Source of the DNA: an uncultured Syntrophaceae bacterium
GTDB taxonomy: Bacteria > Desulfobacterota > Syntrophia > Syntrophales > UBA5619
Length of the DNA: 63,444 nucleotides
NCBI GenBank assembly: GCA_964433455.1
Contig: CAYSSF010000002.1
Location: forward strand, 7,950-71,393
Reading direction: 5' to 3'
Each line of letters begins with the position of its first letter. Position 1 is the stretch's first letter. A program made the translations under genes and the position numbers. Positions 5,420 to 51,479 of this stretch are shown here, piece after piece. The notes beneath the pieces are model-generated. The model did not search any database and had not been told where the DNA came from. It was given only the letters and a program-made list of their open reading frames with translations.

Positions 5420-5459
5420 TGTGAAGGGAATATGACAAAATCGTGACGATATTGTGAAG
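5420..5459 (-). promoter_or_regulatory. Pho-box-like array (4 phased half-sites) upstream of the amphi-Trp/phoH2/ppk gene string
   Basis: Minus strand reads CTTCACA(5459-5453), CGTCACG(5448-5442), TGTCATA(5437-5431), CTTCACA(5426-5420). Spacing is exactly 11 bp. The array ends 85 nt before ATG 5335. Confidence 0.6.
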
Positions 5460-5478
5460 ATATTCAGTTGCCTCCATA

Positions 5479-5506
5479 TTTAACGAAAACGTCATCAACC
5501 GGTCAC
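5479..5506 (+). promoter_or_regulatory. Pho-box-like array (3 phased half-sites), duplicated copy of the array at 16906-16933
   Basis: TTTAAC(5479), CGTCAT(5490), GGTCAC(5501) at 11-bp spacing, 90 nt before ATG 5597. GTCATCAaCCGGTCACA here matches GTCATCAtCCGGTCACA upstream of the 812-aa gene. Confidence 0.6.
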
Positions 5507-5596
5507 AATAATCCGCTAAAGGATATTCCGGGAAACAGGTCGGCCCCGCATTTCCGGGACTACGAAAATGAAACATCCTTATTCAGGAGTCTATCG

Positions 5597-6244
5597 ATGA
5601 GCAGATCCGAAACAGCCCTTTGCTTGTCCCTGTCCCCGTGCCGCCTTGACGGCGAAAAGATCCACTCTCAAAGGGCGGTCATAGAAAAGCTCAACGTATA
5701 CAAGCTCTTCGGAATCAGCATCGAAGACCTCCCGTTTTCCATAGGCGACACAACCGCCGGGAGCGAAGCGGAGCTGCAGGCCGTGGTGGTCGGCAAAAAA
5801 GAAAATGTCGACCTCCCCCTCACAATCATCCGGTCGCACTATTTTGCCAACATCATCAAAAGGACGGCCTCCGGCGAGCTGCCCACCCGGACCATGACAG
5901 ACCTGGAGAGGTATCTGGACGAAAATGCCGACGGCGTCTGGGAAAACAGTTGGGTCCGTTTTCCGATGGCCCTGCTGGGGTATTTCGCTCGACGGATCTT
6001 TCAGGACGACCTGCTGGCGGACAAGGCCGATCCGGACCAAGGCAACCGAAAGGCCCTTAACAAAGAAAATTATGGAAAGGAAAGGTTTGAATATGTATAC
6101 CGGCACCAACACCCACATGGACGCCTCGCAGGAGGGCGTCGTCATAGCCTGCAAACGGGACTACCTTCCGGATTCGCGGTCCGGGTCCTCCCTGGACGCC
6201 CCTATCGATCTCAAGCTGACACAACTGTTCAAAAGTCTTCGTAG
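5597..6244 (+). pseudogene. truncated duplicate (N-terminal ~165 codons) of the 812-aa unknown protein gene
   Basis: MSRSETALCLSLSPCRL...EKLNVYKLFGISIEDLPF...ENSWVRFP...LLADKADP aligns at roughly 75 % aa identity (hand count) with residues 1-~165 of 14380-16818. Homology is lost near nt 6100, and the frame then runs out-of-frame over the kinase 5' end. Confidence 0.7.
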
Positions 6245-7736
6245 AAACGTTTCCATTTTCATGGTCGCCACCGACCCCCTCGGGATGATCCGCCTGGCCT
6301 CTTCCAACGCCGGGCTGCTGTTGGGTTGCAACCTCTCCGAACTGCTGGAGGTAGACATCCGGACCTTGTTCAGCGACGAACCGGGACGAACGAACGATAT
6401 CATGGCCGATCTGGAAACCGAAGGGGAGTTGGAAAATCTGGAGATGGTTTTGAAAAGGAAAGACGGAGATCCATTGCATGTCGACATCTCCGCTTCCCTG
6501 CTGATCGGCGAAGATCGACAACGGCTGGGGACCATCTTTCTGCTCCGGGACATCACAGAAAAAAAGAAGATGGAAGACCAGTTGCGCCATTCACAAAAGA
6601 TGGAGGCGATCGGAACCCTCGCCGGCGGGATCGCCCACGACTTCAACAATCTCCTGACCGGAATCCAGGGCTACGCCTCCCTGATGCTTTTCGACTTGCA
6701 GCCGCAGCATCCCCATTACGAAATGGTCAGAAGCATCGAACAGCAGATTCAAAGCGGCGCGGACCTCACAAAGAAACTGCTGGGGTTTGCCAAAGGGGGA
6801 AAGTACGAGGTCAGACCCATCGATATCAACGACCTCGTCCGAAAAAGCGTCAGGATCTTCGGTCGCACACGCAAGGAGATCAAGGTGCACGGCAGGTATG
6901 CGGAGCCGATCGAGACCGTCGAGGTCGATGCCAGCCAGATCGAGCATGTCCTGCTGAACCTCTATATCAACGCCTGGCAGGCGATGCCCGAGGGGGGTGA
7001 TCTGTACATCGACACAGAAAACATCATGCTGGATCAACCCTTCCTCAAGACCTACAATATCAAACCGGGACTCTTTGTAAAAGTCTCCGTTACGGACACC
7101 GGGGTCGGTATGGACGCGGAAACCCAACACCGGGTGTTCGAACCCTTTTTCACAACCAAGGAGCGGGGCCGGGGAACAGGCCTCGGCATGGCTTCCGCGT
7201 ACGGCATCATCAAGAGCCACGGCGGCGTCATCAAGGTCTACAGCGAAATCGGGAAAGGGACGACCGTGACCATCCATCTGCCGGCGTCGAACAAGCAGAA
7301 ATTCCGCGAGATCAAACCTCGCCATCAGCTCAGACGGGGTCATGAAACCATTCTGCTCATCGATGACGAAGAGTCGAATGCCCAGGTGACGGGGGAGTTG
7401 CTTGAAAGAGTTGGTTACCGCGTGTTGACGGCGAACAACGGCATGGAAGGAATGGCGATATTCAAAAAGCGGAAGGCGGAGATCTCCGTCGTGATTCTGG
7501 ACATGATCATGCCCGGAATGACGGGCAGAGAAACATTCGAAGCCTTGAAAGAGATCGAACCCACCGTCAGGGTTATCCTGTCCAGCGGTTACAGCCTCAA
7601 CGGCCAGGCCCGGGAAATCCTGGAGCAGGGCTGCCGGGGGTTCATCCAGAAGCCCTTCGATATATCGAGACTCTCGCAAAAGATCGGGGAGGTTTTACTG
7701 GACGGCAGCGGGGAAACGGTCAAACGGGCGGGATGA
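6072..7736 (+). CDS. hybrid sensor histidine kinase (PAS-HisKA-HATPase-REC)
   Basis: PAS-like region followed by the H-box GGIAHDFNNLLTGIQGY. ATPase motifs DTGVGM and GTGLGMA. C-terminal receiver domain ILLIDDEE...ILDMIMPGM...KPF. The start is ambiguous (ATG 6072, 6093 or 6117), and the track ORF begins at 5925. Confidence 0.85.
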   Translation: MERKGLNMYTGTNTHMDASQEGVVIACKRDYLPDSRSGSSLDAPIDLKLTQLFKSLRRNVSIFMVATDPLGMIRLASSNAGLLLGCNLSELLEVDIRTLFSDEPGRTNDIMADLETEGELENLEMVLKRKDGDPLHVDISASLLIGEDRQRLGTIFLLRDITEKKKMEDQLRHSQKMEAIGTLAGGIAHDFNNLLTGIQGYASLMLFDLQPQHPHYEMVRSIEQQIQSGADLTKKLLGFAKGGKYEVRPIDINDLVRKSVRIFGRTRKEIKVHGRYAEPIETVEVDASQIEHVLLNLYINAWQAMPEGGDLYIDTENIMLDQPFLKTYNIKPGLFVKVSVTDTGVGMDAETQHRVFEPFFTTKERGRGTGLGMASAYGIIKSHGGVIKVYSEIGKGTTVTIHLPASNKQKFREIKPRHQLRRGHETILLIDDEESNAQVTGELLERVGYRVLTANNGMEGMAIFKKRKAEISVVILDMIMPGMTGRETFEALKEIEPTVRVILSSGYSLNGQAREILEQGCRGFIQKPFDISRLSQKIGEVLLDGSGETVKRAG

Positions 7737-8170: not shown

Positions 8171-8209
8171 CATCACGGAATCTTCATAAAGACGACACAG
8201 GGACGTAAC
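8171..8209 (+). promoter_or_regulatory. Pho-box-like array (4 phased half-sites) upstream of the second pst operon
   Basis: CATCAC(8171), CTTCAT(8182), CGACAC(8193), CGTAAC(8204) at 11-bp spacing, ending 81 nt before ATG 8290. The half-sites are more degenerate than in the other arrays. Confidence 0.45.
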
Positions 8210-14379: not shown

Positions 14380-16818
14380 TCACGCGCGGAGGACGCGCTG
14401 GTTTCTACCGCCAGCGGCCTGCAAGGGCGGGCGCTCGGCCTCGCGCCGATCGAAGGCGACTGTGATGATCAGGAGGGCGATCAGCTTTTGCAGGAGTTCG
14501 GGCGAGGCATGTTCGTCCTGCAGAACCTGCCTGAACCATTCGGAGATCGGCCGGTTCCCGCCGATCGAACGGAGTAGGTTGCGAACCCCCTGCCGTTCGC
14601 TGCACGGGGTCGAGGCGATGCGTCTTAGATCCTCCTCCAGAAATCTGACTCCTTCCAGGGCATGGCTGATCCTCAGGTCGGTGCGGTAGTAGTTCTCGGC
14701 GGTCCGGTTGAAGTCGCCGGCCTGCATCTCCATCGGGGAACGGGCCTTGGCCTTTTCCAGGATGGCCCGGGTCAGTTTTCCCCCTGCGGAACAGCGCTCC
14801 GGCTCCTCGATTCTTTTTTCGAGATCCTCGATCGTTGCGGACATCCGGAGGAGTTCGATCAGCTCCGCCCCATCCTCCTTGATGGTGCGAACGAGGGCCC
14901 GGCAATACTCCCGGTGGTGGACCCGCAGATACCCGGGGTAGCGCCGGCTGGACCTCACCCGCTCCGTTTTTTCCACGATCCGCCGCAGGAACCGGTTCCC
15001 AGAATCCTTGCGGATGAAGAAGGTGGGGATGCCCACGGCCTGCCCGAAGATGATCTGCCGCCGCTCGCTCTCGACAAAGGGATCGTCGGGGATATCGGCG
15101 TGGGCGACGCTCTCTTCGGCAATATATTTGAAGGCCAGGGCCGTGAGGAGGTTTTGCAGATCCACGGCCCTGGCCATATCCCCTTCCAGGCTGAAGAAGA
15201 GGCTGTAGGTGCGGCCCTCGAAACCGGAAAATCCCATGGCCGCGAATTCACGCAGCTTGTTGAACAGATAGAGAGACATCCTTTTGTCGAAGACGCCCAA
15301 TTCGGTGAGATCCCGTTTCAACCGGTCATGGTTTTGAGGCGTTCCATCCAGGGCCGGGCTCTTCTCCGTGCTCCTCAGGGCCACCAGGTAATCGATCAGC
15401 CGAAAATCGGGGATAAAATCGCCGCGGAGCCGAAAAAGGGCGCTGATCGCCCGGTCGAGCCAGGGAGGACCGAAGGGGGTCACGGTCTTTCCGAAGAGAT
15501 TGATGTCGGCCTTTTTCTGCCAGCGCCTCCAGAGCATGCGCAAGTGGGTGAAATCGAGTTCGTGGGGCAGAAATCCGAGAATGCTTTCGGGGTGGAATTC
15601 CGAAAAATCGAGCCGGTAGGGAGTGGCGCTGTAAGTGCCGACCAAAAGGGGCAGGAAATGCTCATGGATCTTGATGACCAGATCTCCCAGATATTTCTCG
15701 TGCCGGCTGTCGAATCCGGAGGCCGGATCCTTCAGTAGATCGGTGAGTTTGCGGCTGCCGAGGCTGACGTGGGTCCCGTTGTTGGCCAGGCTGATGTTGG
15801 AGGTGTTCGGCAGCACCACGAGATTCCGGTTGATGATGCCCGCCTCGCGGAGCTTCCCCAGCGCATTGAGCTGGCTGCGGCTCAGGACCCGGTGGCAGAG
15901 ATGCATGTATTCCTGCTTCACCTCCCCGCGGTTCCAACCCGAGAGACAGGGATTCATGAAAAGTTCCCGGTAAAAGGCATCGGAGATGCAGGCGTTCAGC
16001 TTTTTCTGCCGGATCGGCGGATGGGGCGAGTAGAAGACCAACGCCCTCTGGCCGCTCTCGGCAAGGCCGAAACGGCTGTTGGCGTAGAGGGTCAGCAACT
16101 GCGTCAGCAGAAACCGTTTTGCCGATTCCCTGGCCACCTCCCGTCCCATTTGGGTCCCGGGAGAGAGGGATGAGACATGGAAGGAGCAGACCTCCGGCGA
16201 GGTGTTGTCGCTGAGAAAGTGGTTCATCAGCGTCTGGCCCGTCCCGGCGATGAGCGGCGGCTCTCCGTCGATCGCCTCGGCCAGAGCGATCTTAAGGAGA
16301 TAGCTGATCGGAATGCGGATGTACTCTCTCCCCTCCTGAAGGAAGATGAAATTGGCAAGGTCGGTCCGTTCCCCCCGGGCCGGGTCGCCCTTGTCGGCCA
16401 GGAGATCCTTCTCGAAGACCCGTCGGGCGAAGGGGCCGAGCAGTTCCCTTGGGAAGCGGACCCAACTGTTTTCCCATACCCCGTCGGCATTCTCCTGGAG
16501 GTACCGTTCGAGATCGGTCATGGCCCGGTCCGGCAATTCGCCCGCCGCCCTTCGCCTGACAATATTGGCAAAGTAATGGGATTGGACGATGGTGATCGGC
16601 AGGTCAACCTCTTCCTTTTTCCCGATCACAACGGCCTGCAACTCCGTTTCGCTCCCGGCGGTGGTGTCATGCAGGGAAAAGGGAAGGTCCGCCACGTCGA
16701 CCCCGAACAATTTATAAACATTCAATTTTTCCATTCCTTCCCGGGTGGAGAGAACCTCCTCTTCCGGAAGGCGGCTCGGCGCCATGGCCAAACAGACGCT
16801 GCTTTCATTTCTGCTCAT
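14380..16818 (-). CDS. large (812 aa) conserved-looking protein of unrecognised family
   Basis: Uninterrupted ORF with coding-like composition. No signal peptide or TM segment is visible by eye, and I recognise no motif. ATG 16818 has a GGGGAAAGG RBS and aligns with the start of the duplicated fragment; the track start at 16848 is TTG. Confidence 0.8.
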   Translation of the reverse strand: MSRNESSVCLAMAPSRLPEEEVLSTREGMEKLNVYKLFGVDVADLPFSLHDTTAGSETELQAVVIGKKEEVDLPITIVQSHYFANIVRRRAAGELPDRAMTDLERYLQENADGVWENSWVRFPRELLGPFARRVFEKDLLADKGDPARGERTDLANFIFLQEGREYIRIPISYLLKIALAEAIDGEPPLIAGTGQTLMNHFLSDNTSPEVCSFHVSSLSPGTQMGREVARESAKRFLLTQLLTLYANSRFGLAESGQRALVFYSPHPPIRQKKLNACISDAFYRELFMNPCLSGWNRGEVKQEYMHLCHRVLSRSQLNALGKLREAGIINRNLVVLPNTSNISLANNGTHVSLGSRKLTDLLKDPASGFDSRHEKYLGDLVIKIHEHFLPLLVGTYSATPYRLDFSEFHPESILGFLPHELDFTHLRMLWRRWQKKADINLFGKTVTPFGPPWLDRAISALFRLRGDFIPDFRLIDYLVALRSTEKSPALDGTPQNHDRLKRDLTELGVFDKRMSLYLFNKLREFAAMGFSGFEGRTYSLFFSLEGDMARAVDLQNLLTALAFKYIAEESVAHADIPDDPFVESERRQIIFGQAVGIPTFFIRKDSGNRFLRRIVEKTERVRSSRRYPGYLRVHHREYCRALVRTIKEDGAELIELLRMSATIEDLEKRIEEPERCSAGGKLTRAILEKAKARSPMEMQAGDFNRTAENYYRTDLRISHALEGVRFLEEDLRRIASTPCSERQGVRNLLRSIGGNRPISEWFRQVLQDEHASPELLQKLIALLIITVAFDRREAERPPLQAAGGRNQRVLRA

Positions 16819-16905: not shown

Positions 16906-16933
16906 GTGACCGGATGATGACGCTTGGATGAAG
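16906..16933 (-). promoter_or_regulatory. Pho-box-like array (3 phased half-sites) upstream of the 812-aa gene
   Basis: Minus strand reads CTTCAT(16933-16928), CGTCAT(16922-16917), GGTCAC(16911-16906) at 11-bp spacing, ending 88 nt before ATG 16818. Confidence 0.6.
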
Positions 16934-17064
16934 TCGCTGTGAATTTTTTTCCCGTATCACTCCTTGGGAACAAGTGGAATCTTTTATGCGGTGTATGGGT
17001 TTTGATCTTCACCTGTTCTGAAGAATCGGACAGTCTCCCGGAGCTGATAGCCCTGGCTGGATCT

Positions 17065-17103
17065 TTTCACGCAAACTTTATTCGAATGTCATCATCACGT
17101 CAC
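17065..17103 (+). promoter_or_regulatory. Pho-box-like array (4 phased half-sites) upstream of the dehydrogenase/PhnX-like unit
   Basis: TTTCAC(17065), CTTTAT(17076), TGTCAT(17087), CGTCAC(17098) at 11-bp spacing, ending 75 nt before ATG 17178. Confidence 0.6.
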
Positions 17104-17177: not shown

Positions 17178-17450
17178 ATGCGAATCGGATTCATTGGCTT
17201 GGGGCGCATGGGCTTTCCCATGGCGCGTAACCTTATCAAGGCGGTAGTGATCATCGGAGATTTCACGGACAACTCGAAAAAAAAGATCACGGAACTGTTT
17301 CCCTCCGATTGGAAGATCGCCATCGTATCGGTTGCGGAAATGGACGCGGAGTTGGCCGATGCGGAGGTCATCATTCCGGAACACATCATGGTTGACGGAC
17401 CGTTTCTCGATCGGGCAAAAAAACTCAGGCTGATCCAGACAGCGGCATGA
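17178..17450 (+). pseudogene. chimeric, truncated dehydrogenase remnant
   Basis: The first 22 aa (MRIGFIGLGRMGFPMARNLIKA) look like a 3-hydroxyisobutyrate/6PGDH-type NAD-binding N-terminus. The rest (AELADAEVIIPEHIMVDGPFLDRAKKLRLIQTAA*) looks like the N-terminal substrate domain of a D-2-hydroxyacid dehydrogenase that stops before its NAD domain. Confidence 0.5.
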
Positions 17451-17508
17451 TCCCCCTCAATGCCCTCAATCGGATTGCCTGATTCTAATTCCCAACAATG
17501 GAGATTGT

Positions 17509-18606
17509 ATGGCGGCAAAAATGGCAAGAGCGGCTGTTATGACGAAAATCAATGGAGATTTGGAAATCCGGGAGTATCCGTTACCCCGGGTGGCGCAAGG
17601 GGCCATGCTGGTCAGGGTGTCCTGTTGCACGATATGCGGTTCGGACATCCTGGCATGGTCGGGGAAGAAGAAAGCCCCGGTCCCCATGATTCTCGGCCAT
17701 GAAATCGTAGGAAGGATTGTAAAACTTGGCGTGGGGGTGGTCTCCGATTCGGGGAATCGGACGCTGAAGGCAGGGGATCGAATCACGTGGACCATCATGG
17801 ACAATTGCGGGAAGTGCTATTATTGCCGGGAAAAGGGACTGATGATGAAATGCCTGAATCTGAAGAAGTACGGGCATGACTGCTGCGACGATTATCCCCA
17901 TTTCACGGGAGGTTTCGCCGAATACTGCTACATCACCCCCGGTACCTGTGTCGTCAAGGTGCCGGATGAACTGACCGACGCAGAGGCGGCGCCGGCCAAT
18001 TGTGCCCTGGCAACAGTTGTGGCAGGATGGGAAGCCGCCGATCTGAAGCCCTTTGAGAACGTCCTGATCCAGGGCGCCGGCGCCCTGGGATTTTATGCGG
18101 CTGCCCTGGCAAAACACTATGGATGCAGGAGAATCATCGTGACGGACATCCTGGCTCATCGCCTCGAGGCGATCAGGAAGTTCGGCGCGACGGACACGAT
18201 CAATACCGCGGGGATGAGGGATGAGGATCTCGTCGGCGCGGTCCGCGACCTTACCGCCGGTTTCGGTGTTGATGCAGCCATGGATGTCGCCATTGCCCCG
18301 AGCATTGTCCCCGTCGGATTGAAGTGTTTGCGAATGGGCGGCCGATAGATTGAGCATGGCAATACGTTTCCCGGAGCAACCGCCACGTTCGATGTTTCCG
18401 ACATCGTGTTTCGGTGTCTCACGATTCGGGGAGTGCATAACTATGATACGCGGCATCTCCAATGGGGGATTGATTTTCTAGCACAGACAAGAGGGACTTT
18501 TCCTTTTGAGAAACTCGTCATCGGGCGGTTTCCCCTCGCGGAGATCAACCAGGCGATGAATCTTGCCCGTTCAGGAAAGGCGATTCGCGTCGCGATCGTC
18601 CCATAG
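17509..18606 (+). pseudogene. zinc-type (MDR) alcohol dehydrogenase interrupted by one in-frame TAG
   Basis: GHEIVG, structural-Zn loop CGKCYYCREK, and NAD motif GAGALG. Track ORFs 17509-18348 and 18406-18606 are in the same frame. ...LRMGGR-TAG(18346-18348)-IEHGNTF... reads through as one ~365-aa ADH. Confidence 0.7.
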
Positions 18607-23581: not shown

Positions 23582-23615
23582 CGGTACCTCCGGGATTGTG
23601 ATTTGCCAATACGCT

Positions 23616-23654
23616 ATCACCCATTCGTTACGGGCGCATTAAAGCAATGTTACA
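23616..23654 (-). promoter_or_regulatory. Pho-box-like array upstream of phnCDE
   Basis: Minus strand reads TGTAAC(23654-23649), TTTAAT(23643-23638), CGTAAC(23632-23627), GGTGAT(23621-23616) at 11-bp spacing. It lies very close to the start codon (35-46 nt), which implies a short leader. Confidence 0.45.
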
Positions 23655-30136: not shown

Positions 30137-30168
30137 CTCCGCAGTACTCCTTTCCCTTTTGATGGTCG

Positions 30169-30602: not shown

Positions 30603-30630
30603 CCCAAGGGTTGTTCCTAACATCACTATT

Positions 30631-33331: not shown

Positions 33332-33512
33332 TTTTTGGTCCCCTATCGCGGCCGGTGGGCGCATGGTCTATTTGCCCGAACTGTTCCGAACAGCGTGAAA
33401 GATGTCACGCTATTGTTGCGTGCGCCTTACGGTGATGTGAAATGAATGTTAATTTTTTGCCACTTACAGGTCTTGGCGGGGTTGAGATTAGAGCTATCCT
33501 TCTTGACTTGCG

Positions 33513-37762: not shown

Positions 37763-37827
37763 GACGGTGATCTCCTACAGAAGTTCGTTTCCGGTCACAG
37801 AAATCTACGAAAACCGATAGGTACCAT

Positions 37828-37866
37828 AGCGAAATACTATGACAACCCTATGACATTTCGATTACA
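37828..37866 (-). promoter_or_regulatory. Pho-box-like array upstream of the ATPase/MetK-like operon
   Basis: Minus strand reads TGTAAT(37866-37861), TGTCAT(37855-37850), TGTCAT(37844-37839), and a weak TTCGCT(37833-37828) at 11-bp spacing, 66-77 nt before GTG 37762. Confidence 0.6.
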
Positions 37867-37949
37867 GAAATATAAAATTTCCCGAAAGATGGCTGAAGGC
37901 GGCATGGGGTATCGCGAAAAGATAGTGACGGCAACGGCCGCATACGACA

Positions 37950-37977
37950 TTTAACGGAATTGTCATCCATCTGTCAC
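37950..37977 (+). promoter_or_regulatory. Pho-box-like array upstream of the small ORF/CorA-like operon
   Basis: TTTAAC(37950), TGTCAT(37961), TGTCAC(37972) at 11-bp spacing, ending 78 nt before ATG 38055. Confidence 0.6.
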
Positions 37978-38054
37978 AATTTCGTGGGATCATATGTCGT
38001 TTCTTTGGAAAACTTCAGCAGCAATGCAGCGAAGCTCTAAAGAGGAGCGAATCG

Positions 38055-38354
38055 ATGAACCGACCTCAATCCGAATCTGACGACAAAGCGGAACAAGTGA
38101 AGCATCGTCAATCCATAGAAGATTTGTCCATGTTACTGGAGATGCCCCGGGATTGCGTTGTCGCCGCCTATGAGCAGGAGCTGGACGCGATGGGACGGAT
38201 GGCGCGGGTTAGAGATTATCTTCCCATCCTGGTGAGCCGGCGGGTGAAGAACTTGCTCCAATCTCGCCGGGCTTTTGACGTTGCAACGGGCCGGTCAACG
38301 GCTCATCAAAATGAACACTTCACCGAAGGAAGAATGCATCATGGGATGGAATGA
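38055..38354 (+). CDS. small hypothetical protein (possibly DUF3562-like)
   Basis: 99 aa with a GAGGAG RBS. It overlaps the CorA-like start by 14 nt. The family guess is from memory only. Confidence 0.45.
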   Translation: MNRPQSESDDKAEQVKHRQSIEDLSMLLEMPRDCVVAAYEQELDAMGRMARVRDYLPILVSRRVKNLLQSRRAFDVATGRSTAHQNEHFTEGRMHHGME

Positions 38355-39279
38355 AATCAAAGGCAACAACATTCGTTGGATCAACATCGATCACCCGAAC
38401 AGCGAGACGGTCAATGCTTTGGCGGAAGTCCATCCATTCCACAAGCTTGCCCTCGATGATTGCCTTTCGAAAAATCAGCTCCCGAAAATAGATGATTATG
38501 GGGAATATCTATTCATCATTCTACACTTCCCCCGTTATCTCAAAGAGCTCAGATTCTCGATCCCGATGCAGGTCGCCCTCTTTCTGGGCCGCGATTTTCT
38601 TGTGACGGTCCATTCCGGCGACCTCAAGCCCATTAACCGCATCTTCGAAGCGTGCCGCGACAACGAGGCAGCCCGGAGCAATTACATGGGCAAGAGCTCC
38701 TATTACCTCGTTTACCAACTTATCCTGGCACTGGTGGAAAATCTCCTGAAGATGGCGGCCAAGGTTATGTCGAACATTGAGGTCCTGGAAGAGAAGGTCT
38801 TTGACGAATCTGTCGACGCTGTCCGCGACGTGACCGGGCTTCGCCACAACATCGCAAACCTGCGGCGAACGATCTTTCCGCTCAAGCGGGTGTTGCACGA
38901 ACTGGAGCGCGGAGTCGACCATTTTTCCAAAGATGAGACGATGGCTGTTTACTTCGGCGATCTTTCCGACTCGATCGACAAGGTTTGGGAGATCATCGAA
39001 TCCTGTAAAGAGATGAGCGAGATCTACAAGGACACGGACTACATCATCAGTGCGGATCGCACCAACAGGATCCTGACCCTTCTCACGATTGTCTTCACCT
39101 TTTCGATACCGGCATCGCTCATCGGGACGTTTTACGGCACGAACGTCAGAATCCCGGGAGGTCTCGAAGACGCTCCGACATTCCTCGGCCCGTACACGAC
39201 CTTCATTCTGATCGTCGCGGCCTCGGTTTTTTCCGTCGTCGTTATGCTTGCCCTCTTCCGCAAATTCCGCTGGCTGTGA
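38341..39279 (+). CDS. CorA-family divalent cation channel with GTN in place of GMN
   Basis: CorA-like length and architecture: a cytoplasmic domain followed by two C-terminal TMs. The loop motif reads FYGTNVRIPG (ggc acg aac at 39136-39144). ATG 38341 is preferred; the track ORF starts at 38275. Confidence 0.8.
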   Translation: MGWNEIKGNNIRWINIDHPNSETVNALAEVHPFHKLALDDCLSKNQLPKIDDYGEYLFIILHFPRYLKELRFSIPMQVALFLGRDFLVTVHSGDLKPINRIFEACRDNEAARSNYMGKSSYYLVYQLILALVENLLKMAAKVMSNIEVLEEKVFDESVDAVRDVTGLRHNIANLRRTIFPLKRVLHELERGVDHFSKDETMAVYFGDLSDSIDKVWEIIESCKEMSEIYKDTDYIISADRTNRILTLLTIVFTFSIPASLIGTFYGTNVRIPGGLEDAPTFLGPYTTFILIVAASVFSVVVMLALFRKFRWL

Positions 39280-40629: not shown

Positions 40630-40709
40630 GAAATCACCTCCTTTCCGGTAAAACAACAGCACGGGAAGTAATGTAAAACCGGTGCCAATGGGTTGTCAAT
40701 ATTTTAATT

Positions 40710-40726
40710 GTTAAGTGTTTGTGACA
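40710..40726 (-). promoter_or_regulatory. single Pho-box-like pair upstream of the DUF5132-like operon
   Basis: Minus strand reads TGTCAC(40726-40721) and CTTAAC(40715-40710) at 11-bp spacing, 81 nt before ATG 40629. There are only two half-sites. Confidence 0.4.
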
Positions 40727-40821
40727 AAAAGATTCGACCGGGGCAACAACAGGCACCAGCCCGAAATTCGGGCAAACATCACTTCCCGTCCCGACTCCCC
40801 TTCATGGAACCAGCGGCCAGA

Positions 40822-41899: not shown

Positions 41900-43831
41900 C
41901 TAAGCATGCTGCCGCTGCTCGAACATGAATCCACTTTTCCCGGTTTCGGCCGTCATCCTTTTGACCTCTTTCTTCAAAGAGGCGGCGACTTCCGAAAACA
42001 GGGCCGGATGCGGCTCCGTCCAAATCTTGCTGCTGTCGACCACGGAGAGGCTCATGGTGACGAGCGGCGTTCTGACGGGGTTTCCCTGGCGATCCGTGGT
42101 CCCGAGGAGAAAACCTCTTGCGATATCCTCATTCTTGAACAGGGCGAGCTTTTCGGCATCGAAGCTTCGGCACAGATCTACCAGGGCCTCTTCCGGAATG
42201 ATGCCCCGGTTGACGATCACGAAGTCGTCGCCGCCGACGTTTCCCAATCTCGCCCCCTCCGGCAGCCGGGCGAGCCAGTCGCCCATCACCTTCGCCGCGA
42301 GGCACAGCATCTCATCCCCCATCAGAAAACCGTAGGTATCGTTATAGCCTTTGAACTGATCGAGATCGACATAGATAATCGAATAGGCGGGCCAGGTCAG
42401 GGCATCGTTGATCCAACGGCGGATCGCGTTGTTGCCCGGCAGGCCGGTCAGGGGATTAACCCCCATTGCGCAGCGGATCTCCAATTCAAGCGACTTGGTC
42501 ATCACCTGCTTCATGGTCACGGTCCCCATGAATTCCCCCCGGGAATCCACCACCAGGACGGGATCGTAGAGGTCTTCCGCCGGGCGGTCCATGGCCAGTT
42601 TCGCCATCGTCGTCACCGTCATCTTGTCTTCGACGATCAATGGATTCCGCTTGCAGACCACCTCAGCGGGTTTCTTCTGGAACAACTGATACCCGAAAGC
42701 GCCCCCGGTTTCCGCATAAAAATTCTGCCGCGTGATCATTCCGGCGATGCTCTCCCCGTCAAGAATGATCACGTGGTCCAGGTGGGTCTGTTTCTTGAAA
42801 ACCATATCCAGCTCCTTGCAGCAGAGGGTGCGGACGGCGATCGTCATCGGACGAATCACGAGGCCCGCCACCTTTTCATCGATATCGATCGCGGCCTGAT
42901 CATACTTTTCGATCAGCGCCCTGATCTTCTTTTTCATCTCCGCTGAAATGGGATAGGGCTCCTTCTCGGGCATGCCGAAGAGAAATCCCTGGACATACCG
43001 GATGCCGTAGCGAACCAGGACCTCCAACTCCTCCAACGATTCAACCCCTTCGGCGATCACCCTGGCATTGACGCTGGAGGCGAAGGCCGTAATGGCCTTG
43101 ACGAGCTTCTGCTTGTAGTCATGCCTGTGAACATCCCGGACGATCGCCATGTCCAGCTTCAGATAGTGGGGCGTCGAAGCGATCAACGTGACCAGGCCGG
43201 AATAGCCCGATCCGAAGTCGTCCATGGCGATCTTGAAACCCTGATTGGCGTAATGAGAAACCAGGGCCCCGAACGTTTTGAAGTCCTCGAAGCTCTTTCC
43301 CTCGGTGATCTCAATCACGATCTGTTTTTGATCGATCCCGTATTCATGGAGGCGCTTCTGGGTGAATCTTTCCAGAAAGCGGGGATCACTGAAGATGTCC
43401 GGGCTGACGTTGATGAAGTAGACGGCGTTTCGGAAGGGTTCGGAAAGCGACGCGATCTTCTTCAGGGCTGCGACACGGCAGGCCCTTTCCAAATCCCATG
43501 TCGCCCCCAGCCTTTTCGCCTCCGAGAACATCCGTCCCGGCGTTTCAAAGGGAGGGTTGCCCCGTGACAGGACTTCAAACCCCGTGATGGTGGCCGAGAA
43601 GAGATCGATAATGGGGTGAAAATGGGGAGTCACCTGAATCGACTCGATGAACCCGTTCACCAAGGTCTCCCGTGCGCGTGCGAGATCGCTGAAACCCTCT
43701 GCAGCGTGATCGGTTCGCGCCATGAGTTGGCTTTGCATGTCTGGTTTCTCCAATGTTTCCGATACATAACAGTGGATTGTGACGCCGTGATGACCGGTCA
43801 ATGAAGACTCCGTGAAATCAGGCGACGGCAA
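41900..43831 (-). CDS. EAL - CBS pair - GGDEF-like (GGDDF) signalling protein
   Basis: EAL-domain residues are present (EVLSR, N in FINVS, EITE, DDFGSGYS, KLD, EGVE, QG). The central region is CBS-like. The C-terminal cyclase-like domain has GGDDF instead of GG(D/E)EF. The true start is uncertain (43831 or ATG 43738). Confidence 0.8.
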   Translation of the reverse strand: MPSPDFTESSLTGHHGVTIHCYVSETLEKPDMQSQLMARTDHAAEGFSDLARARETLVNGFIESIQVTPHFHPIIDLFSATITGFEVLSRGNPPFETPGRMFSEAKRLGATWDLERACRVAALKKIASLSEPFRNAVYFINVSPDIFSDPRFLERFTQKRLHEYGIDQKQIVIEITEGKSFEDFKTFGALVSHYANQGFKIAMDDFGSGYSGLVTLIASTPHYLKLDMAIVRDVHRHDYKQKLVKAITAFASSVNARVIAEGVESLEELEVLVRYGIRYVQGFLFGMPEKEPYPISAEMKKKIRALIEKYDQAAIDIDEKVAGLVIRPMTIAVRTLCCKELDMVFKKQTHLDHVIILDGESIAGMITRQNFYAETGGAFGYQLFQKKPAEVVCKRNPLIVEDKMTVTTMAKLAMDRPAEDLYDPVLVVDSRGEFMGTVTMKQVMTKSLELEIRCAMGVNPLTGLPGNNAIRRWINDALTWPAYSIIYVDLDQFKGYNDTYGFLMGDEMLCLAAKVMGDWLARLPEGARLGNVGGDDFVIVNRGIIPEEALVDLCRSFDAEKLALFKNEDIARGFLLGTTDRQGNPVRTPLVTMSLSVVDSSKIWTEPHPALFSEVAASLKKEVKRMTAETGKSGFMFEQRQHA

Positions 43832-44376: not shown

Positions 44377-44415
44377 GTTGCAAAACCATGACGGTCCCGT
44401 GAAGAATTCATGAAG
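44377..44415 (-). promoter_or_regulatory. Pho-box-like array (4 phased half-sites) upstream of arsC
   Basis: Minus strand reads CTTCAT(44415-44410), CTTCAC(44404-44399), CGTCAT(44393-44388), TGCAAC(44382-44377) at 11-bp spacing, 78 nt before ATG 44299. Confidence 0.6.
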
Positions 44416-44460: not shown

Positions 44461-45168
44461 TCAGCCCTCCACATCGGCAAACTTGTACCCGATGCCGCGC
44501 ACGGTCAGAATGTAGCGGGGAGCCTCCTTGTCCGGTTCGATCGCCCCCCGGAGACGGCTGATATGGACATCGACGGTGCGGGGCTCCACGAAAGACTCGT
44601 CGCCCCAAACCCGGTCCAGAAGTTGATCCCGGCTGTAGACCCGGCCCGGATGGCCGATGAAAAACTGGAGCAGCTTGAATTCGCGGGAGCTGAGGTCAAC
44701 GGGCCGGCCGTCCACGGAGACCTGGTAAGATTTAAAATCGATGTGGAGACCTCTGAAATCGAAGGATTCCGGAAGATCGTCGTCCGGTTTCCGTTCCATC
44801 CGCCGCAGCACGGCGCGGATGCGGGCGATCAGCTCCCGGACATGGAACGGTTTGGTGATGTAGTCGTCGGCCCCGACCTCCAGCCCCAGAATCTTGTCCA
44901 CCGGATCCGACTTGGCGGTGAGCATGATGATTGGCAGGGCGACTGTCGCGTTCTGTCGCCGGACCATCCGGCATACCTCCATACCGGAAATTTCAGGCAT
45001 CATCAGATCAAGGATGACGAGGTCCGGCTTGTCCGCATTGATCATTCTCCATGCCTTCTGCCCGTCAAAGGCCTTGAGAACGGAAAATCCCTCCTGCTCC
45101 AGGTTGTAGGCGATCAGTTCGACGATATCCTTCTCGTCATCGGCCACCAGAATTTTTTTTTGGCTCAT
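44461..45168 (-). CDS. phoB: phosphate regulon response regulator PhoB (OmpR family)
   Basis: REC domain (ILVADDE...LDLMMPE...TAK) plus a winged-helix C-terminus (..TVRGIGYKF). It lies directly after phoR with an ATGA overlap, in a pst-phoU context. Confidence 0.88.
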   Translation of the reverse strand: MSQKKILVADDEKDIVELIAYNLEQEGFSVLKAFDGQKAWRMINADKPDLVILDLMMPEISGMEVCRMVRRQNATVALPIIMLTAKSDPVDKILGLEVGADDYITKPFHVRELIARIRAVLRRMERKPDDDLPESFDFRGLHIDFKSYQVSVDGRPVDLSSREFKLLQFFIGHPGRVYSRDQLLDRVWGDESFVEPRTVDVHISRLRGAIEPDKEAPRYILTVRGIGYKFADVEG

Positions 45169-47024
45169 GCGCTCCCTCCTGCGGCATCGATTTTTACGGC
45201 GTCGCCGCCTGCGGGAACATCATCGGCCGTTCCCCCGAGGGGAGAGGTCAGGCGCGGCTCATCCGCCGATTCCGGTTCCCGAAAAAGGGGAAAGGAGAGC
45301 GAAACCGTCGTGCCGCGACCCAGGACGCTGTCGATGATCACCCGTCCACGGTGGGCCATCATCAGGTGTTTGACGATGGACAACCCCAACCCCGTGCCGC
45401 CCATCTCCCGGGAGCGCATCTTGTCTGCGCGGTAGAAGCGCTCGCCCAGCCTCGGGATCTCGCCCTTCGGGATGCCGACGCCCGTATCGCTGATCCGGAC
45501 GGTCAGGTTCTCTTTATCGCCCGGTGAAGTCGTGATGGAAATCGTTCCGCCCGCCGGGGTAAATTTGATTGCATTATCGAGAATATTGATCAGAATCTGC
45601 GCCAGCCGGTCCCGGTCGGCGTGGATCAGCGGAAGTTCCCCGGCAATCTCTTTCCGGATCGTCAATCCCTTTTCCCCGGCCCTCGCCTCGACAACGGTCA
45701 GAACCTGGTCGAACGCCTCTTCGATCCGTATCCCCTCCAGGTGGAGCTTGGCCTCGCCCAGTTCGAGACCGGACAAGGTCAGCAGATCGTCCACGAGGCG
45801 GTTCAGCCGTTCGGCGTTCTCCCGGATCGTGCCCAGGAACTTCCGGGCCGTCTCCGGGTCTTCGAATGCGCCCTGCTGCAGGGTTTCCGCAAACCCGATG
45901 ATCGCCGTCAGGGGCGTCCGGATCTCGTGGGTGACGTTGGCCACGAAATCGGTCCGCGTCCGTTCGAGCTTCTTCAGACGCGTCACGTCGTGGAAAACCA
46001 GAATGGTTTTCCGCTCCCCGCCGGTCTCGCCATGAAAGGCGGAGAAGGTGACGTCCATCATGACGGGAGGGTACTCTCCCAAACCGATCTCCTCGCTGAT
46101 GGTCTCTTCCCGCTGCCGGAACCGTTCCAGGGCGTCGTGGAGTTCGCTGTTCCTGAATGCTCCCAGGAGTGTCTTTCCTGTCACGTCCCCGTGCAAACGG
46201 CCGGTCATCTTCTCCATCCCCCGGTTGACCGACTCGATCCGGTTTTCGGCATCCAGGACGACGACCCCTTCCTGCATGCTGGAGAATACCGATTCAAGTT
46301 TTCGTTTTTCCGCGTCGGCCGCCTGGATTTTTTTTTGGAGGGCCTCAACCATTTCGTTAATGCATTCAGCAAGTTGTCCTATTTCATCCTGGGAGTCGAC
46401 CCGCAAGGCTCCCGCGATGTACCCCGTGCGGACCTGGCCGGCGAATGCCGCCAGTCTGCGGATGGGGGAGAGCATCTTCAGAGAAAACAAGAACGCGATC
46501 GTCAGGGAGACGACAACGATGGCAAGAAGAATACCGAAAACGGTTTTTCCCATCCCCCGGGTGGCCAGCGCGATTTCGGTGAGGGGACGGGAGAGACGGA
46601 TGTATCCGGTTATCCGCGATTCCTCCCGAAGAGGGACGGCGACGTAGATCATATCCTTCTTCAGCGTGAGGCTGTAGCGAACCGCCTTCCCGACCCCCTT
46701 CAGACGGGCTTGCTCGATCTCCGGGCGATCGAGGTGATTGTCCATCTTCCGGCCGTCGCGCTCCGAATCCGCAGTAACCAGGCCCGCGGCGTCGATCAAC
46801 GTCAGACGGGCACGGGTGCGCTCCGCCAGTTCCGCGGCATGCCTCGCGATCTCTCGCGCCGGCATCAGCGCGATGACCCGCGCCTCGGCCGTTACTTCGT
46901 CATCGATTCGTGCGGTGAGGTCCGTCGTCAGCTCCCGTTCGATCAGGAAACCGGCGACCGCGACGACCGCAATACCGACGGCGAGAAAGGCGAAAAAGAA
47001 TTTATGGAAGAGGCGAATCTTCAT
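45165..47024 (-). CDS. phoR: phosphate regulon sensor histidine kinase PhoR
   Basis: Two TMs, HAMP, PAS, H-box FVANVTHEIRTPLTAI, and ATPase motifs DTGVGIP and GTGLGLSIV. Operon position lies between phoU and phoB. Confidence 0.85.
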   Translation of the reverse strand: MKIRLFHKFFFAFLAVGIAVVAVAGFLIERELTTDLTARIDDEVTAEARVIALMPAREIARHAAELAERTRARLTLIDAAGLVTADSERDGRKMDNHLDRPEIEQARLKGVGKAVRYSLTLKKDMIYVAVPLREESRITGYIRLSRPLTEIALATRGMGKTVFGILLAIVVVSLTIAFLFSLKMLSPIRRLAAFAGQVRTGYIAGALRVDSQDEIGQLAECINEMVEALQKKIQAADAEKRKLESVFSSMQEGVVVLDAENRIESVNRGMEKMTGRLHGDVTGKTLLGAFRNSELHDALERFRQREETISEEIGLGEYPPVMMDVTFSAFHGETGGERKTILVFHDVTRLKKLERTRTDFVANVTHEIRTPLTAIIGFAETLQQGAFEDPETARKFLGTIRENAERLNRLVDDLLTLSGLELGEAKLHLEGIRIEEAFDQVLTVVEARAGEKGLTIRKEIAGELPLIHADRDRLAQILINILDNAIKFTPAGGTISITTSPGDKENLTVRISDTGVGIPKGEIPRLGERFYRADKMRSREMGGTGLGLSIVKHLMMAHRGRVIIDSVLGRGTTVSLSFPLFREPESADEPRLTSPLGGTADDVPAGGDAVKIDAAGGSA

Positions 47025-49327: not shown

Positions 49328-50265
49328 CTTGCATGCCTCCGCTCCGCCCGCAGGAGAAAGAATTTCGCGATGGCAAGGAATACGAAACTCATCACAAACA
49401 GGATGAGGGCGAGGTAAAAGAGCGATGAAAGGTAAATATCATTATCCGCCTCGGTAAATTCATTGGCCAAGGTTACCGTGATCGTCGCGGCGCTGTCAAA
49501 GAGCGAGGTGAATATCCGGTGGTTGTTCCCCAGGACAAAGGCGACGGCCATGGTCTCGCCGAGGGCGCGTCCCAGGGAAAAGAGGATTCCCCCGAAAACA
49601 CCAATCTTTGAATAGGGAATAACGATATTTTTCACCACCTCCCACCTGGTCGCCCCCAGGGCGTAGGCCGATTCCTTGACGACGTCCGGCGTCAGATTGA
49701 ATGCGTCTCTCGCGATGCTTGCCGTAAAGGGAACGATCATGATGCTCAGGATGACGCTTGCCGTTAAAATATCAATGCCCATGGGCGTTCCTTGAAACAG
49801 GACGCCGACCAGCGGAATGTCGGCGGTGGCTCTTTGGAGAAGCGGCTCGACATAGTTGCCCATGATCGGAGAAAGGGTGAAAAACCCCCACATGCCGTAG
49901 ATGATGCTCGGAATGGCAGCCAGGAGCTCTATAGCGATTCCAATGGGCCCTTTCAGGAAATTCGGCGATACTTCGGTGATGAAGATCGCAATACCCAGGG
50001 CGACGGGGATTGCCATGACAAGCGACAGGACCGTGGTAACGACGGTTCCATAGATGCTGGTCAATGCGCCGAAGGACTCCTTGACCGGATCCCAGTCTGT
50101 GGAAGTAAGGAATTGGATGACGCCGAACTTTTCTATCGCCGGGGAGGATTCCCTGATAAGAACGAACAGAATTCCGATCACGAAGACGATAACCGTGCAG
50201 GAGGCGACGGCGGTAATCGCCGAGAAGATGATATCACCCGGATTTCTTTTAAATGTAACGGCCAT
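49324..50265 (-). CDS. pstC: phosphate ABC transporter permease PstC
   Basis: Polytopic permease with KESAYALGATRWEVVKNIVIPY. Operon position supports the call. Confidence 0.88.
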   Translation of the reverse strand: MAVTFKRNPGDIIFSAITAVASCTVIVFVIGILFVLIRESSPAIEKFGVIQFLTSTDWDPVKESFGALTSIYGTVVTTVLSLVMAIPVALGIAIFITEVSPNFLKGPIGIAIELLAAIPSIIYGMWGFFTLSPIMGNYVEPLLQRATADIPLVGVLFQGTPMGIDILTASVILSIMIVPFTASIARDAFNLTPDVVKESAYALGATRWEVVKNIVIPYSKIGVFGGILFSLGRALGETMAVAFVLGNNHRIFTSLFDSAATITVTLANEFTEADNDIYLSSLFYLALILFVMSFVFLAIAKFFLLRAERRHAR

Positions 50266-50352
50266 TTAAAATATTCCTCTGCAATTCCAATAAGAACGAA
50301 GCGGGACGGGCAAGGATCTTACCCGCCCCGCCGCTGTCCGGCACCGCCTGTT

Positions 50353-51363
50353 TCATTGAGCGCCATTCGCCTTCCAGTAGGCCCTGATCTTGTCCTTCAA
50401 TGATTTCGGCAACGGCACGTAGACCAGTTCCTTTGCCTTGGGATCTCCATTCCTGAAGGCCCAGTCGAAAAATTTGACCACATTCCGGTTGGCTTCCGCC
50501 TTCTCCTGGGCAAGGAGGATGAAGGTGGCTCCCGCGATGGGCCATGAATTTTTCCCCGGTGCATTCACGAGCCAGAGATAAAAATGGTTTTTCGGATCGA
50601 ACGTGCCGGTGTCCGCGGCATCCTCAAAAGCATCGAAGCTCGGTGTTACAAAAGTTCCGGCGGAATTTTTAAGGAGCGTATAGGTAAGCTTGTTCTGCTC
50701 TGCATAGGCAAATTCCACGTAGCCGACGGAGTTTGCCGTCCTTTGCACATAGTTGGCCACCCCTTCGTTCCCCTTGCCGCCGATACCGGCAGGCCATTTT
50801 ACCGAAGTGCCCGCTCCCACTTTTGCCTTCCAGTCGGGAGAGACAGCACTAAGGTATTCCGTAAACAGCGCCGTAGTCCCCGATCCGTCCGACCGGTGGA
50901 CCACCGTGATCTCATCATGAGATAATTTGAGATTGGGATTCAAGGACTTAATTTTGTTGTCATTCCAATATTTAATTTCTCCCAGGAAGATTTTTGCGGT
51001 AGCTTCGGCGTCAAGCCTCATGTCGCCCGGTTTCACGCCGGCGATGTTGACCACCGGCACCACGCCGCCGATGACGGCGGGGAATTGCAGCAGCTTCACC
51101 TTGGCAAGCGCCTCCGGCGTCAAAGGTGCATCGGACGCCCCGAAATCCACGGTTCTCTCGGTAATCTGCCGGATTCCACCGCCTGAGCCGATGGACTGGT
51201 AGTTGAGCTGTACCCCGGTCGTCTTGTTGTAATCAAAGGCCCAGGCCGAGTAAACGGGATAAGGGAAACTTGCCCCCGCACCGTTCAGTCTCTCCGCCGC
51301 CTCCGCGCCGGTAAAGGATAACACACATGCCAACACCGCTGCAACTTTGAAAATCCCTTTCAT
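50353..51363 (-). CDS. pstS: high-affinity phosphate-binding protein PstS (canonical long type)
   Basis: Signal peptide, GAGASFPYPVY, YQSIGSGGGI and FGASDAP motifs as in E. coli-type PstS. AGAAGGAGG RBS. Confidence 0.92.
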   Translation of the reverse strand: MKGIFKVAAVLACVLSFTGAEAAERLNGAGASFPYPVYSAWAFDYNKTTGVQLNYQSIGSGGGIRQITERTVDFGASDAPLTPEALAKVKLLQFPAVIGGVVPVVNIAGVKPGDMRLDAEATAKIFLGEIKYWNDNKIKSLNPNLKLSHDEITVVHRSDGSGTTALFTEYLSAVSPDWKAKVGAGTSVKWPAGIGGKGNEGVANYVQRTANSVGYVEFAYAEQNKLTYTLLKNSAGTFVTPSFDAFEDAADTGTFDPKNHFYLWLVNAPGKNSWPIAGATFILLAQEKAEANRNVVKFFDWAFRNGDPKAKELVYVPLPKSLKDKIRAYWKANGAQ

Positions 51364-51439
51364 ATTTCCTCCTTCTGCTGAATTTGACCATCCTTTGGAT
51401 GTCCGTTCCTCGAATACGAGGGGAATCTATACCTTGATT

Positions 51440-51479
51440 GTTACAACCATGTGACAGCGCGATGAACTTTTCGTTACAC
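51440..51479 (-). promoter_or_regulatory. Pho-box array (4 phased heptamers) upstream of pstSCAB-phoU-phoRB
   Basis: Minus strand reads GTGTAAC(51479-51473), AGTTCAT(51468-51462), CTGTCAC(51457-51451), TTGTAAC(51446-51440) at exactly 11-bp spacing, 77 nt before ATG 51363. This is the expected location for PhoB boxes. Confidence 0.75.

Follow-up and report, generated by a model that had tools for sequence, protein, structure and literature searches.

Clustered Pho-box-like arrays outline a probable PhoB regulon island in an uncultured Syntrophaceae bacterium

The DNA analyzed here, hereafter the window, is a stretch of 63,444 nucleotides from an uncultured Syntrophaceae bacterium (assembly GCA_964433455.1, contig CAYSSF010000002.1, positions 7,950 to 71,393). 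Its intergenic regions repeatedly carry arrays of short half-sites spaced 11 bp apart, which resemble the Pho boxes bound by the phosphate regulator PhoB. Pfam and NCBIfam scans of about 50 open reading frames (ORFs) revealed that the region from 1 to 51.4 kb is almost wholly phosphate-related. From the left end, the gene order begins on the minus strand with ppk, PIN-PhoH and the genes of an Amphi-Trp protein and a 157-aa protein, followed by a 207-aa ORF with a hybrid histidine kinase and by a second pstSCAB operon with two type I phosphodiesterases. Next come the gene of an 812-aa protein, dehydrogenase and HAD genes, phnCDE with an iron-type alcohol dehydrogenase (Fe-ADH) gene, and a phosphatase fusion. 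The following genes encode a CoA-disulfide-reductase (CoADR)-like flavoprotein, PGA_cap (with a metallophosphatase fold), a 107-aa HMA_2 protein, MORN and MCP proteins, a P2-type ATPase with metK, a DUF3562 ORF with CorA, and an HMA_2 protein with two DUF5132 proteins. The island closes on the right with an alpha/beta hydrolase, an EAL-GGDEF protein, an ArsC-like phosphatase and pstSCAB-phoU-phoR-phoB. The last 12 kb hold unrelated genes (flavin reductase, TPR, cupin, CoADR-rhodanese, Fe-S, MarR, TetR and others). The two regulatory genes of the right-hand operon are the following:

44461-45168 (-): phoB-like response regulator of the OmpR family, the presumed array-binding protein
45165-47024 (-): phoR-like sensor histidine kinase

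Between 1 and 51.5 kb we tallied 15 strong arrays, two weak ones and one orphan, listed here with their -10 hexamers and the genes that they precede:

112-150 (-): four units (TTTCAT, TTTCAC, GGTCAT, CTTAAC); -10 TATGAT at 96-101; partial ORF with start at 71 that runs off the left edge
5421-5459 (-): four units; -10 TTTGAT at 5405-5410; 157-aa hypothetical protein (start 5335), Amphi-Trp protein, PIN-PhoH, ppk
5479-5506 (+): three units; -10 TAAAGG at 5517-5522; 207-aa truncated paralogue of the 812-aa protein (start 5597), then the hybrid histidine kinase
8171-8209 (+): four units, two with one mismatch; -10 TTCAAT; second pstSCAB operon and two type I phosphodiesterase/nucleotide pyrophosphatase genes (start 8290)
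16906-16944 (-): four units; -10 TAAGTC; 812-aa protein (start 16818)
17065-17103 (+): four units; -10 TAAGCG; NAD-binding fragment (start 17178), Zn-ADH-like gene, possibly the HAD hydrolase
23627-23654 (-): three units; -10 TAGCGT at 23611-23616; phnC-phnD-phnE and the Fe-ADH gene (start 23581)
27252-27301 (-): five units; -10 TAGAAA; 1122-aa alkaline phosphatase/metallophosphoesterase/DNRLRE-CBM96 fusion (likely start 27116)
28936-28974 (-): four units; -10 TAGGCT; CoA-disulfide-reductase-like flavoprotein (start 28773, 162-nt leader)
30158-30207 (+): five units; -10 TAGATT; 107-aa single-domain HMA_2 protein (start 30279)
30630-30657 (-): orphan array of three units (TTTAAC, TGTAAT, TGTAAA); -10-like TAGGAA at 30614-30619
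33415-33453 (-): weak, doubtful array of four units upstream of the MCP gene
37839-37877 (-): four units; -10 TATGGT; P2-type (PMR1/LMCA1-like) ATPase (GTG start 37762) and translationally coupled metK
37950-37977 (+): three units; -10 GATCAT; 99-aa DUF3562 ORF at 38055-38354, then CorA (about 38341-39279)
40710-40726 (-): weak box of two units directly upstream of a sigma70-like TTGACA-N17-TTACAT; DUF5132b (start 40629), DUF5132a and HMA_2b
43779-43817 (-): four units; -10 TATGTA; EAL-GGDEF protein (start 43738) and alpha/beta hydrolase
44377-44415 (-): four units; -10 TAGGCT; ArsC (thioredoxin-type)-like low-molecular-weight phosphatase (LMWP; start 44299)
51440-51478 (-): four units (TGTAAC, GTTCAT, TGTCAC, TGTAAC); -10 TAGATT; pstS-pstC-pstA-pstB-phoU-phoR-phoB (51363 down to 44461)

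The preliminary description of this DNA had listed 14 arrays. All of them exist, but two were placed one unit out of register and three others, at 112-150 (-), 43779-43817 (-) and the orphan position 30630-30657 (-), were missed. At 23616-23654 the true array has three units (23627-23654), and the GGTGAT counted as a unit is spacer abutting the -10 hexamer; likewise, the array given as 37828-37866 lies at 37839-37877, its TTCGCT being spacer beside the -10 and the real unit lying one step upstream. The arrays at 16906, 27252 and 30169 are each one unit longer on the upstream side, while that at 40710-40726 is present with only two units. The site before the MCP gene had rightly been called weak, as three of its four units have a mismatch and no good -10 follows. 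Every array that has a downstream gene is co-oriented with it, as first described, and the distance to the start codon ranges from 40 to 162 nt (71-90 nt in 10 of 17). For the EAL-GGDEF gene, the start at 43738 agrees with gene callers on other contigs and has the 43779 array upstream of it.

The phasing of the half-sites is far above chance. Counted over both strands, the window has 447 copies of the strict half-site [TC][TG]T[CA]A[CT], which form 27 pairs, nine triples and two quadruples at a spacing of 11 bp, with harmonics at 22 and 33 bp. Other spacings are flat (0-4 pairs and no triples at 6-10 and 12-17 bp), and 300 dinucleotide shuffles, which never reached the observed count, gave means of 0.9 pairs and 0.003 triples and no quadruples at 11 bp. 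Furthermore, a core taken from the E. coli consensus and not from the window (TGTCAY-N5-TGTMAY, at most one mismatch) matched eight times against 0.85 expected, and seven of these eight matches fall within arrays.

Two models were used for the array scans, which covered the window and fetched loci of other genomes. A 30-nt position weight matrix (PWM) built from 15 window sites gave leave-one-out scores of 15-29 bits, and its window matches of at least 8 bits were all intergenic bar two, in a sequence of which 13.7% is non-coding. The second model, composed of two units, N10 and a -10 hexamer and trained on foreign sites only, recovered every strong promoter of the window, with 30 matches versus 2.3 in shuffles. 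Neither model matched an array in the last 12 kb, right of 51.5 kb. With the foreign-site model, seven genes (ppk, phoH, Amphi-Trp, HAD, MORN, hydrolase and PGA_cap) had no match upstream. Most of them come after a co-oriented gene that an array heads and presumably share its transcript; MORN lies downstream of the MCP gene, whose site is weak, and PGA_cap is without an obvious array-headed partner.

When the 15 window arrays were aligned on their last unit, a spacer of 10 nt followed by a TAnnnT-like hexamer appeared in nearly every case, and no -35 element was found at the aligned strong promoters. These hexamers include TATGAT, TAGATT (twice), TAGGCT (twice), TATGGT, TATGTA, TAGAAA, TAGCGT and TAAGTC. 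Since the last unit ends 10 nt before the -10, the array overlaps the position of a -35 element. This layout is that of E. coli PhoB promoters, such as pstS, which reads TGTCAC-N10-TATTTT. E. coli PhoB sites are described as overlapping the -35 region (PMC3348028). The N10/-10 geometry is also found in 49 non-redundant arrays from other organisms, which have T at position +11 in 42 cases, A at +12 in 36 and T at +16 in 37. Because these three positions lie outside the search matrix and were not used to find the sites, the geometry provides independent support.

The candidate regulator is encoded within one tight operon, pstS-pstC-pstA-pstB-phoU-phoR-phoB, and as the array stands at the head of an operon that ends in phoR-phoB, positive autoregulation would follow. 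Among NCBIfam models, the response regulator was best matched by TIGR02154 PhoB and the sensor kinase by the PnpS/PhoR models, while pstS scored above its equivalog cut-off. For the DNA-binding domain alone, E. coli PhoB was the best of the PDB chains (3e-27 versus 7e-21 for the next). The recognition helix reads RTVDVHIsRLR in the window regulator and RTVDVHIRRLR in E. coli PhoB, and the wing TVRGxGY is conserved. Of four E. coli positions with a reported role in contacting the polymerase (W184, G185, V190 and D192; PMC3348028), three are conserved as well.

The arrays are also conserved in other genomes. In metagenome-assembled genomes (MAGs) of Syntrophales, Smithellaceae and related groups (loci L153-L155 and L157), an orthologue of the 812-aa protein (59-74% identity) lies in the same Pho neighborhood, together with PIN-PhoH, the phosphatase fusion, LMWP, hydrolase, EAL-GGDEF, phoBRU-pstBACS and phn C-P lyase genes. 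Arrays with the N10/-10 arrangement precede the 812-aa gene in all four MAG loci that have upstream sequence, and arrays were also found upstream of PhoH, alkaline phosphatase, LMWP, EAL-GGDEF and pstS genes. The Syntrophales loci thus mark the clustering of PhoB promoters as a lineage feature. A metagenome scan with the P-type ATPase yielded 66 loci, and array clusters were counted at a PWM score of at least 18. They number 16 in the 51.5 kb of the window from 1 to 51.5 kb and 49 in 392 kb of ATPase-ortholog loci, as opposed to none in the 12 kb from 51.5 to 63.4 kb, none in 265 kb of distant P-ATPase loci and nine in 1,261 kb of diverse phoB loci. At least one cluster was present in 20 of 29 ATPase-ortholog loci, including every locus at least 54% identical except one 3.6-kb contig. 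A genome scan queried with PhoB returned, among the matches listed, identities of at most 55% from many phyla and no close genome, so its loci served only as controls. In two Enterobacteriaceae loci (Kluyvera and Dryocola), the window matrix picked TTTTCATAAATCTGTCATAAATCTGACGCA just upstream of phoB, which we take to be the known enterobacterial phoB Pho box.

The direct 11-nt repeats, the N10/-10 geometry, the PhoB-like regulator, the classical targets and the conservation all agree with the original proposal that the arrays are PhoB boxes. We therefore consider it very probable that they are Pho boxes, sites for the phosphorylated PhoB encoded at 44461-45168, and that the region constitutes an island of the PhoB regulon; from the sequence we infer that PhoB binds the arrays, that it activates and does not repress, and that the effect depends on inorganic phosphate (Pi). 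According to this reading, phosphate scarcity would lead PhoR, controlled via PstSCAB-PhoU, to phosphorylate PhoB, a dimer of which would occupy two 11-bp units. Arrays of three to five units, spanning about -23 to -72, would stand in for the -35 element, and PhoB would recruit the sigma70-RNA polymerase to the -10 lying 10 nt after the last unit. Some 15-17 transcription units, holding almost all genes from 1 to 51.5 kb and including pstSCAB-phoU-phoR-phoB itself, would thus be switched on together.

Several observations weigh against this interpretation. The regulator scored 284.8 bits with TIGR02154, slightly below the PhoB cut-off of 296.2, and the sigma-contact residue D192 of E. coli is replaced by proline. 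The strong array at 30630-30657 is without a target. The arrays of the second pstS operon and of the CoADR-like gene contain degenerate units, and the sites of the MCP and DUF5132b genes are weak. In addition, the promoters of the 812-aa gene and its 207-aa paralogue are duplicates and hence not independent observations.

It is improbable that another OmpR-family response regulator binds the arrays in response to a different signal, such as Mg2+, Ca2+ or envelope stress. Direct repeats of 11 bp (10-11 bp) are generic for OmpR/PhoB-family regulators, the island holds cation transporters and a hybrid histidine kinase, and besides the score below the equivalog cut-off, the closest PDB matches of the full-length protein are RegX3 and MtrA. 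RegX3, though, is itself the mycobacterial phosphate regulator (PMC4415409), and the DNA-binding domain is closest to that of E. coli PhoB. Moreover, the array-bearing operons encode only one DNA-binding response regulator, and this lies in the pstSCAB-phoU-phoR operon; the half-site is TGTCA/TGTAA-like, as in the PhoB boxes of E. coli and Desulfovibrio (PMC3333781); and the best arrays precede pstS, phn and phosphatase genes.

There is likewise only a slim chance that the motif is real while some arrays are nonfunctional or repressive, with fewer operons induced by Pi limitation than counted here. Such an outcome would fit the paralogous promoters of the 812-aa and 207-aa genes, the orphan array facing the 3' end of a convergent gene, the DUF5132b site with its two units beside a good sigma70 promoter, and the confirmed PHO boxes known at genes without obvious Pi regulation (PMC4415409). 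It fits poorly with the activator geometry (N10, -10 and no -35) shared by 15 arrays and with the conservation of arrays upstream of orthologues in several species. A compositional artefact, which the AT-richer intergenic DNA and the short, degenerate half-site (16 hexamers) might favor, has a negligible probability and is already refuted by the spacing, shuffle and control-locus counts, with an excess only at 11, 22 and 33 bp that shuffles never reach and no arrays in the intergenic regions right of 51.5 kb or in 265 kb of unrelated P-ATPase loci.

As Pho boxes, the arrays find close counterparts in characterized systems. The PHO box is described as two 11-nt direct-repeat units, each of seven conserved and four variable nucleotides, with CTGTCAT as the E. 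coli unit (PMC4415409). The window shares with the E. coli PhoB promoters (pstS, phoA, phoB and ugpB) the 11-bp direct repeats, the TGTCA-type core and arrays of two to five units, as well as the last unit 10 nt upstream of the -10 without a -35 element, the position before pstS and phosphatase genes, the autoregulation of phoBR, and a nearly identical PhoB recognition helix and wing. It differs in a looser sequence at the first two unit positions, in the equal frequency of TGTAAC and TGTCAC, in spacers without A/T enrichment, and in the placement of phoR-phoB at the end of the pstSCAB-phoU operon. Its roughly 17 promoters are packed into 51 kb and not scattered over the chromosome, whereas E. 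coli has on the order of ten PhoB promoters in 4.6 Mb.

In Desulfovibrio vulgaris Hildenborough, from a related lineage of Desulfobacterota, the group in which the organism names of 812-aa homologues would also place the window, the box (c/t)GT(n)AC of PhoB (DVU1083), obtained by DNA affinity purification on chips (DAP-chip) and electrophoretic mobility shift assays, matches the window half-site (PMC3333781, as far as its available text goes). [quoted passage not shown] In contrast, the D. vulgaris targets are dispersed, the motif was found at 14 of 30 of them, and no P-type ATPase, HMA_2, DUF5132 or 812-aa family protein appears among the targets reported in that portion of the paper. The PhoP operators of Streptomyces coelicolor are also made of two to several 11-nt units, in simple or complex arrangements and of variable unit quality, but their core is GTTCACC, the regulator belongs to another lineage, and many of the sites are repressive (PMC2275107; PMC4415409). 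The mechanism is textbook, and Pho regulons of many bacteria have been reconstructed in silico. To have about 17 PhoB promoters packed into 51 kb is uncommon. The genuinely new associations are those with the 812-aa family and with the module of HMA_2, DUF5132, DUF3562, Ca-type ATPase and MetK.

The classical Pho targets behind arrays comprise two pst operons, phnCDE, alkaline phosphatase, phosphodiesterases, ppk and phoH. The preliminary description had named targets outside the classical regulon, and some are indeed present, but they are fewer than it implied and the island consists mostly of ordinary phosphate-scavenging genes. The less expected ones are the 812-aa family, the ArsC-like phosphatase, the EAL-GGDEF protein and the HMA_2/DUF5132/PMR1-like Ca-ATPase/MetK module. 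Arsenate enters cells via Pst, so an ArsC-like protein in a Pho regulon has a rationale.

The 812-aa protein (14380-16818, minus strand) belongs to a family of more than 2,900 homologues, all labelled hypothetical and found mainly in MAGs of Syntrophales, Geobacteraceae and Smithellaceae; its closest named relatives are from Syntrophales and other Desulfobacterota MAGs. It had no Pfam or NCBIfam match, and the family shows many invariant polar residues (His, Asp, Glu, Cys and Asn). An AlphaFold model built from 36 homologues reached a mean confidence (pLDDT) of 72, and Foldseek of this model against the PDB returned nothing at an E value of at most 0.001. Glutamate-cysteine ligase/glutamine-synthetase-like folds recurred as weak matches only and were not relied on. 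In several genomes (L153-L157) the gene is often followed by PS-decarboxylase-like, DksA-like and Lgt-like genes, a neighborhood that hints at lipid remodelling. The family may be a Pho-regulated enzyme of unknown chemistry, possibly acting in lipid remodelling. The 207-aa ORF (5597-6217, plus strand) is a truncated paralogue with 65% identity over the first 167 aa, and its promoter is also a copy of the 812-aa promoter (CGTCATCAaCCGGTCACA versus CGTCATCAtCCGGTCACA). In a MAG locus (L154), a comparable hybrid kinase comes directly after a full-length orthologue, so the copy in the window resembles a remnant of that operon.

The second set of less expected targets may be related to cations. DUF5132 (PF17195) was matched at 42.7 and 34.6 bits (cut-off 25) and HMA_2 (PF19991) at 47.9 and 59.4 bits (cut-off 30), while an HMA_2-like domain at the N terminus of the ATPase fell just below that cut-off (28.6 bits). 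The ATPase itself is closest to the PMR1/SPCA and Listeria LMCA1 Ca2+ pumps. Pfam HMA_2 may correspond to the CoBaHMA domain, a putative equivalence suggested by the motif HxxxxxGRxR(V/F)K. CoBaHMA is described as HMA-like in fold, with an additional beta0 strand in which a His is conserved and with conserved basic residues in beta1 and beta2 (PMC8890360). The HMA_2 proteins of the window have a His together with a basic GRxR(V/F)K segment, similar to this signature, and the motifs HYIHDVPGRIRVK and HPIHVAVKGRARFRV fit the CoBaHMA description when set against that description only (PMC8890360).

In the library searched, DUF5132 was found in a single paper, on the neighborhood of ccyA in Microcystis, which holds two DUF5132 genes, CoBaHMA-domain proteins and a Ca2+/H+ exchanger; ccyA is the calcyanin gene, linked to intracellular amorphous CaCO3 (bioRxiv 10.1101/2024.07.07.602159). 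The window and its relatives share with that cluster DUF5132, single-domain proteins of the HMA superfamily (HMA_2) and a Ca2+-type transporter. They differ from it in that the window transporter is a P2-type ATPase and not a CAX exchanger, the cluster includes metK and a DUF3562 ORF, the host is not a cyanobacterium, and Pho-box control is not described for the cyanobacterial cluster. No calcyanin-annotated protein is among the Pfam hits of the window, where no search aimed at calcyanin was made, and we found no report of Pho-regulated P-type Ca-ATPases in the literature.

In the metagenome loci the ATPase belongs to a recurring module, often adjoining phoB, pst or phoH, in which DUF5132, HMA_2 and an approximately 230-aa gene come before the ATPase and metK, with a DUF3562-like small ORF and an oppositely oriented HMA_2 gene as further members. 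Its parts, namely a single-domain HMA_2 protein, one or two DUF5132 membrane proteins, a DUF3562 protein, a PMR1/LMCA1-like P2-type Ca2+-ATPase with an N-terminal HMA_2-like domain of its own and a coupled S-adenosylmethionine (SAM) synthetase, recur in more than 20 uncultured lineages with G+C contents from 34% to 62%. Where the ATPase is at least 54% identical, the locus lies amid Pho-box arrays in nearly all cases. In none of the relatives does an array lie in the 400 nt preceding the ATPase gene, which in these loci follows DUF5132, HMA_2 and the gene of about 230 aa, with the arrays at the operon head or beside the HMA_2 gene. Co-oriented arrays precede the single-domain HMA_2 gene in about 12 loci and head the DUF5132 operon in others. 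The direct array upstream of the ATPase is therefore specific to this organism, in which CorA was inserted.

It is possible, and we propose it tentatively, that these genes form a conserved cation-handling module under Pho-box control, beyond the ordinary Pho regulon. As its parts list overlaps the ccyA neighborhood, the module could couple phosphate starvation to the sequestration or export of Ca2+ (or Mn2+/Mg2+), and the data suggest a link to calcium handling under phosphate starvation. If this were so, examples of its role would be the mobilisation of Ca/Mg-polyphosphate, the supply of metal-dependent phosphatases, or a Ca-rich inclusion.

Further details were noted at the ATPase locus and its surroundings. 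The start of metK overlaps the ATPase stop codon (ATGA at 34700-34703, within 33513-37762 on the minus strand). This pairing is kept in essentially all orthologous loci (L084-L138), and the coupling of a cation pump with a SAM synthetase is unusual. In the closest relative (L084, ATPase 79% identical; 6891-7635), HMA_2b is directly followed by the ATPase, whereas in the window (37763-39279) the DUF3562-CorA pair is inserted between them in the opposite orientation, with two new divergent Pho arrays at the junction. The 99-aa DUF3562 (PF12085) ORF at 38055-38354 (+) overlaps the likely CorA start at about 38341 and is the gene actually headed by the 37950-37977 array; DUF3562-like small ORFs also occur downstream of metK in related loci. 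At 40630-40730 (-), a near-consensus sigma70 promoter (TTGACA-N17-TTACAT) comes right after the two Pho units of DUF5132b, a combination by which this operon may have basal, PhoB-independent expression. The orphan array at 30630-30657 (-), a strong one with the usual N10/-10 arrangement, coincides in part with the MORN stop codon and is directed, in antisense, into the HMA_2 gene (30279-30602, plus strand) at its 3' end. An antisense RNA could start from it, or else a long leader reaching towards PGA_cap (start 30136), a gene without an array of its own. As Rfam matched nothing in the window, its long leaders (135 and 162 nt) contain no known riboswitch.

The arrays offer an almost complete and testable map of the phosphate-starvation regulon of an uncultured anaerobe, drawn from its DNA alone. 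They would give a phosphate-starvation context to the 812-aa family and to HMA_2/CoBaHMA-like, DUF5132 and DUF3562 proteins, and they point to a Ca-type P-ATPase with coupled MetK as phosphate-responsive. The motif and its fixed spacing to the -10 could be used as a marker of phosphate limitation in metatranscriptomes from groundwater and peat.

Finally, some observations concern the island as a whole and individual genes within it. A mobile-element origin was rejected, as the Pfam scans of the window found no integrase or transposase domains and composition is uniform. Identical proteins occur on groundwater and JGI metagenome contigs, and when the island was followed to the left, every contig carrying ppk was found to end where the window ends. 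At 17178-18348 (+), the 90-aa ORF covers no more than the beginning of a 6PGDH-type NAD-binding domain, and the Zn-ADH-like ORF after it stops inside its C-terminal domain; these two genes, which a good Pho promoter precedes, may be frameshifted or in decay. The product of 23748-27116 (-), of about 1,120 aa, joins an alkaline phosphatase, a calcineurin-like metallophosphoesterase and DNRLRE/CBM96, and the same architecture, again with a Pho array, is present in a Syntrophales MAG (L153, 4747-8127).

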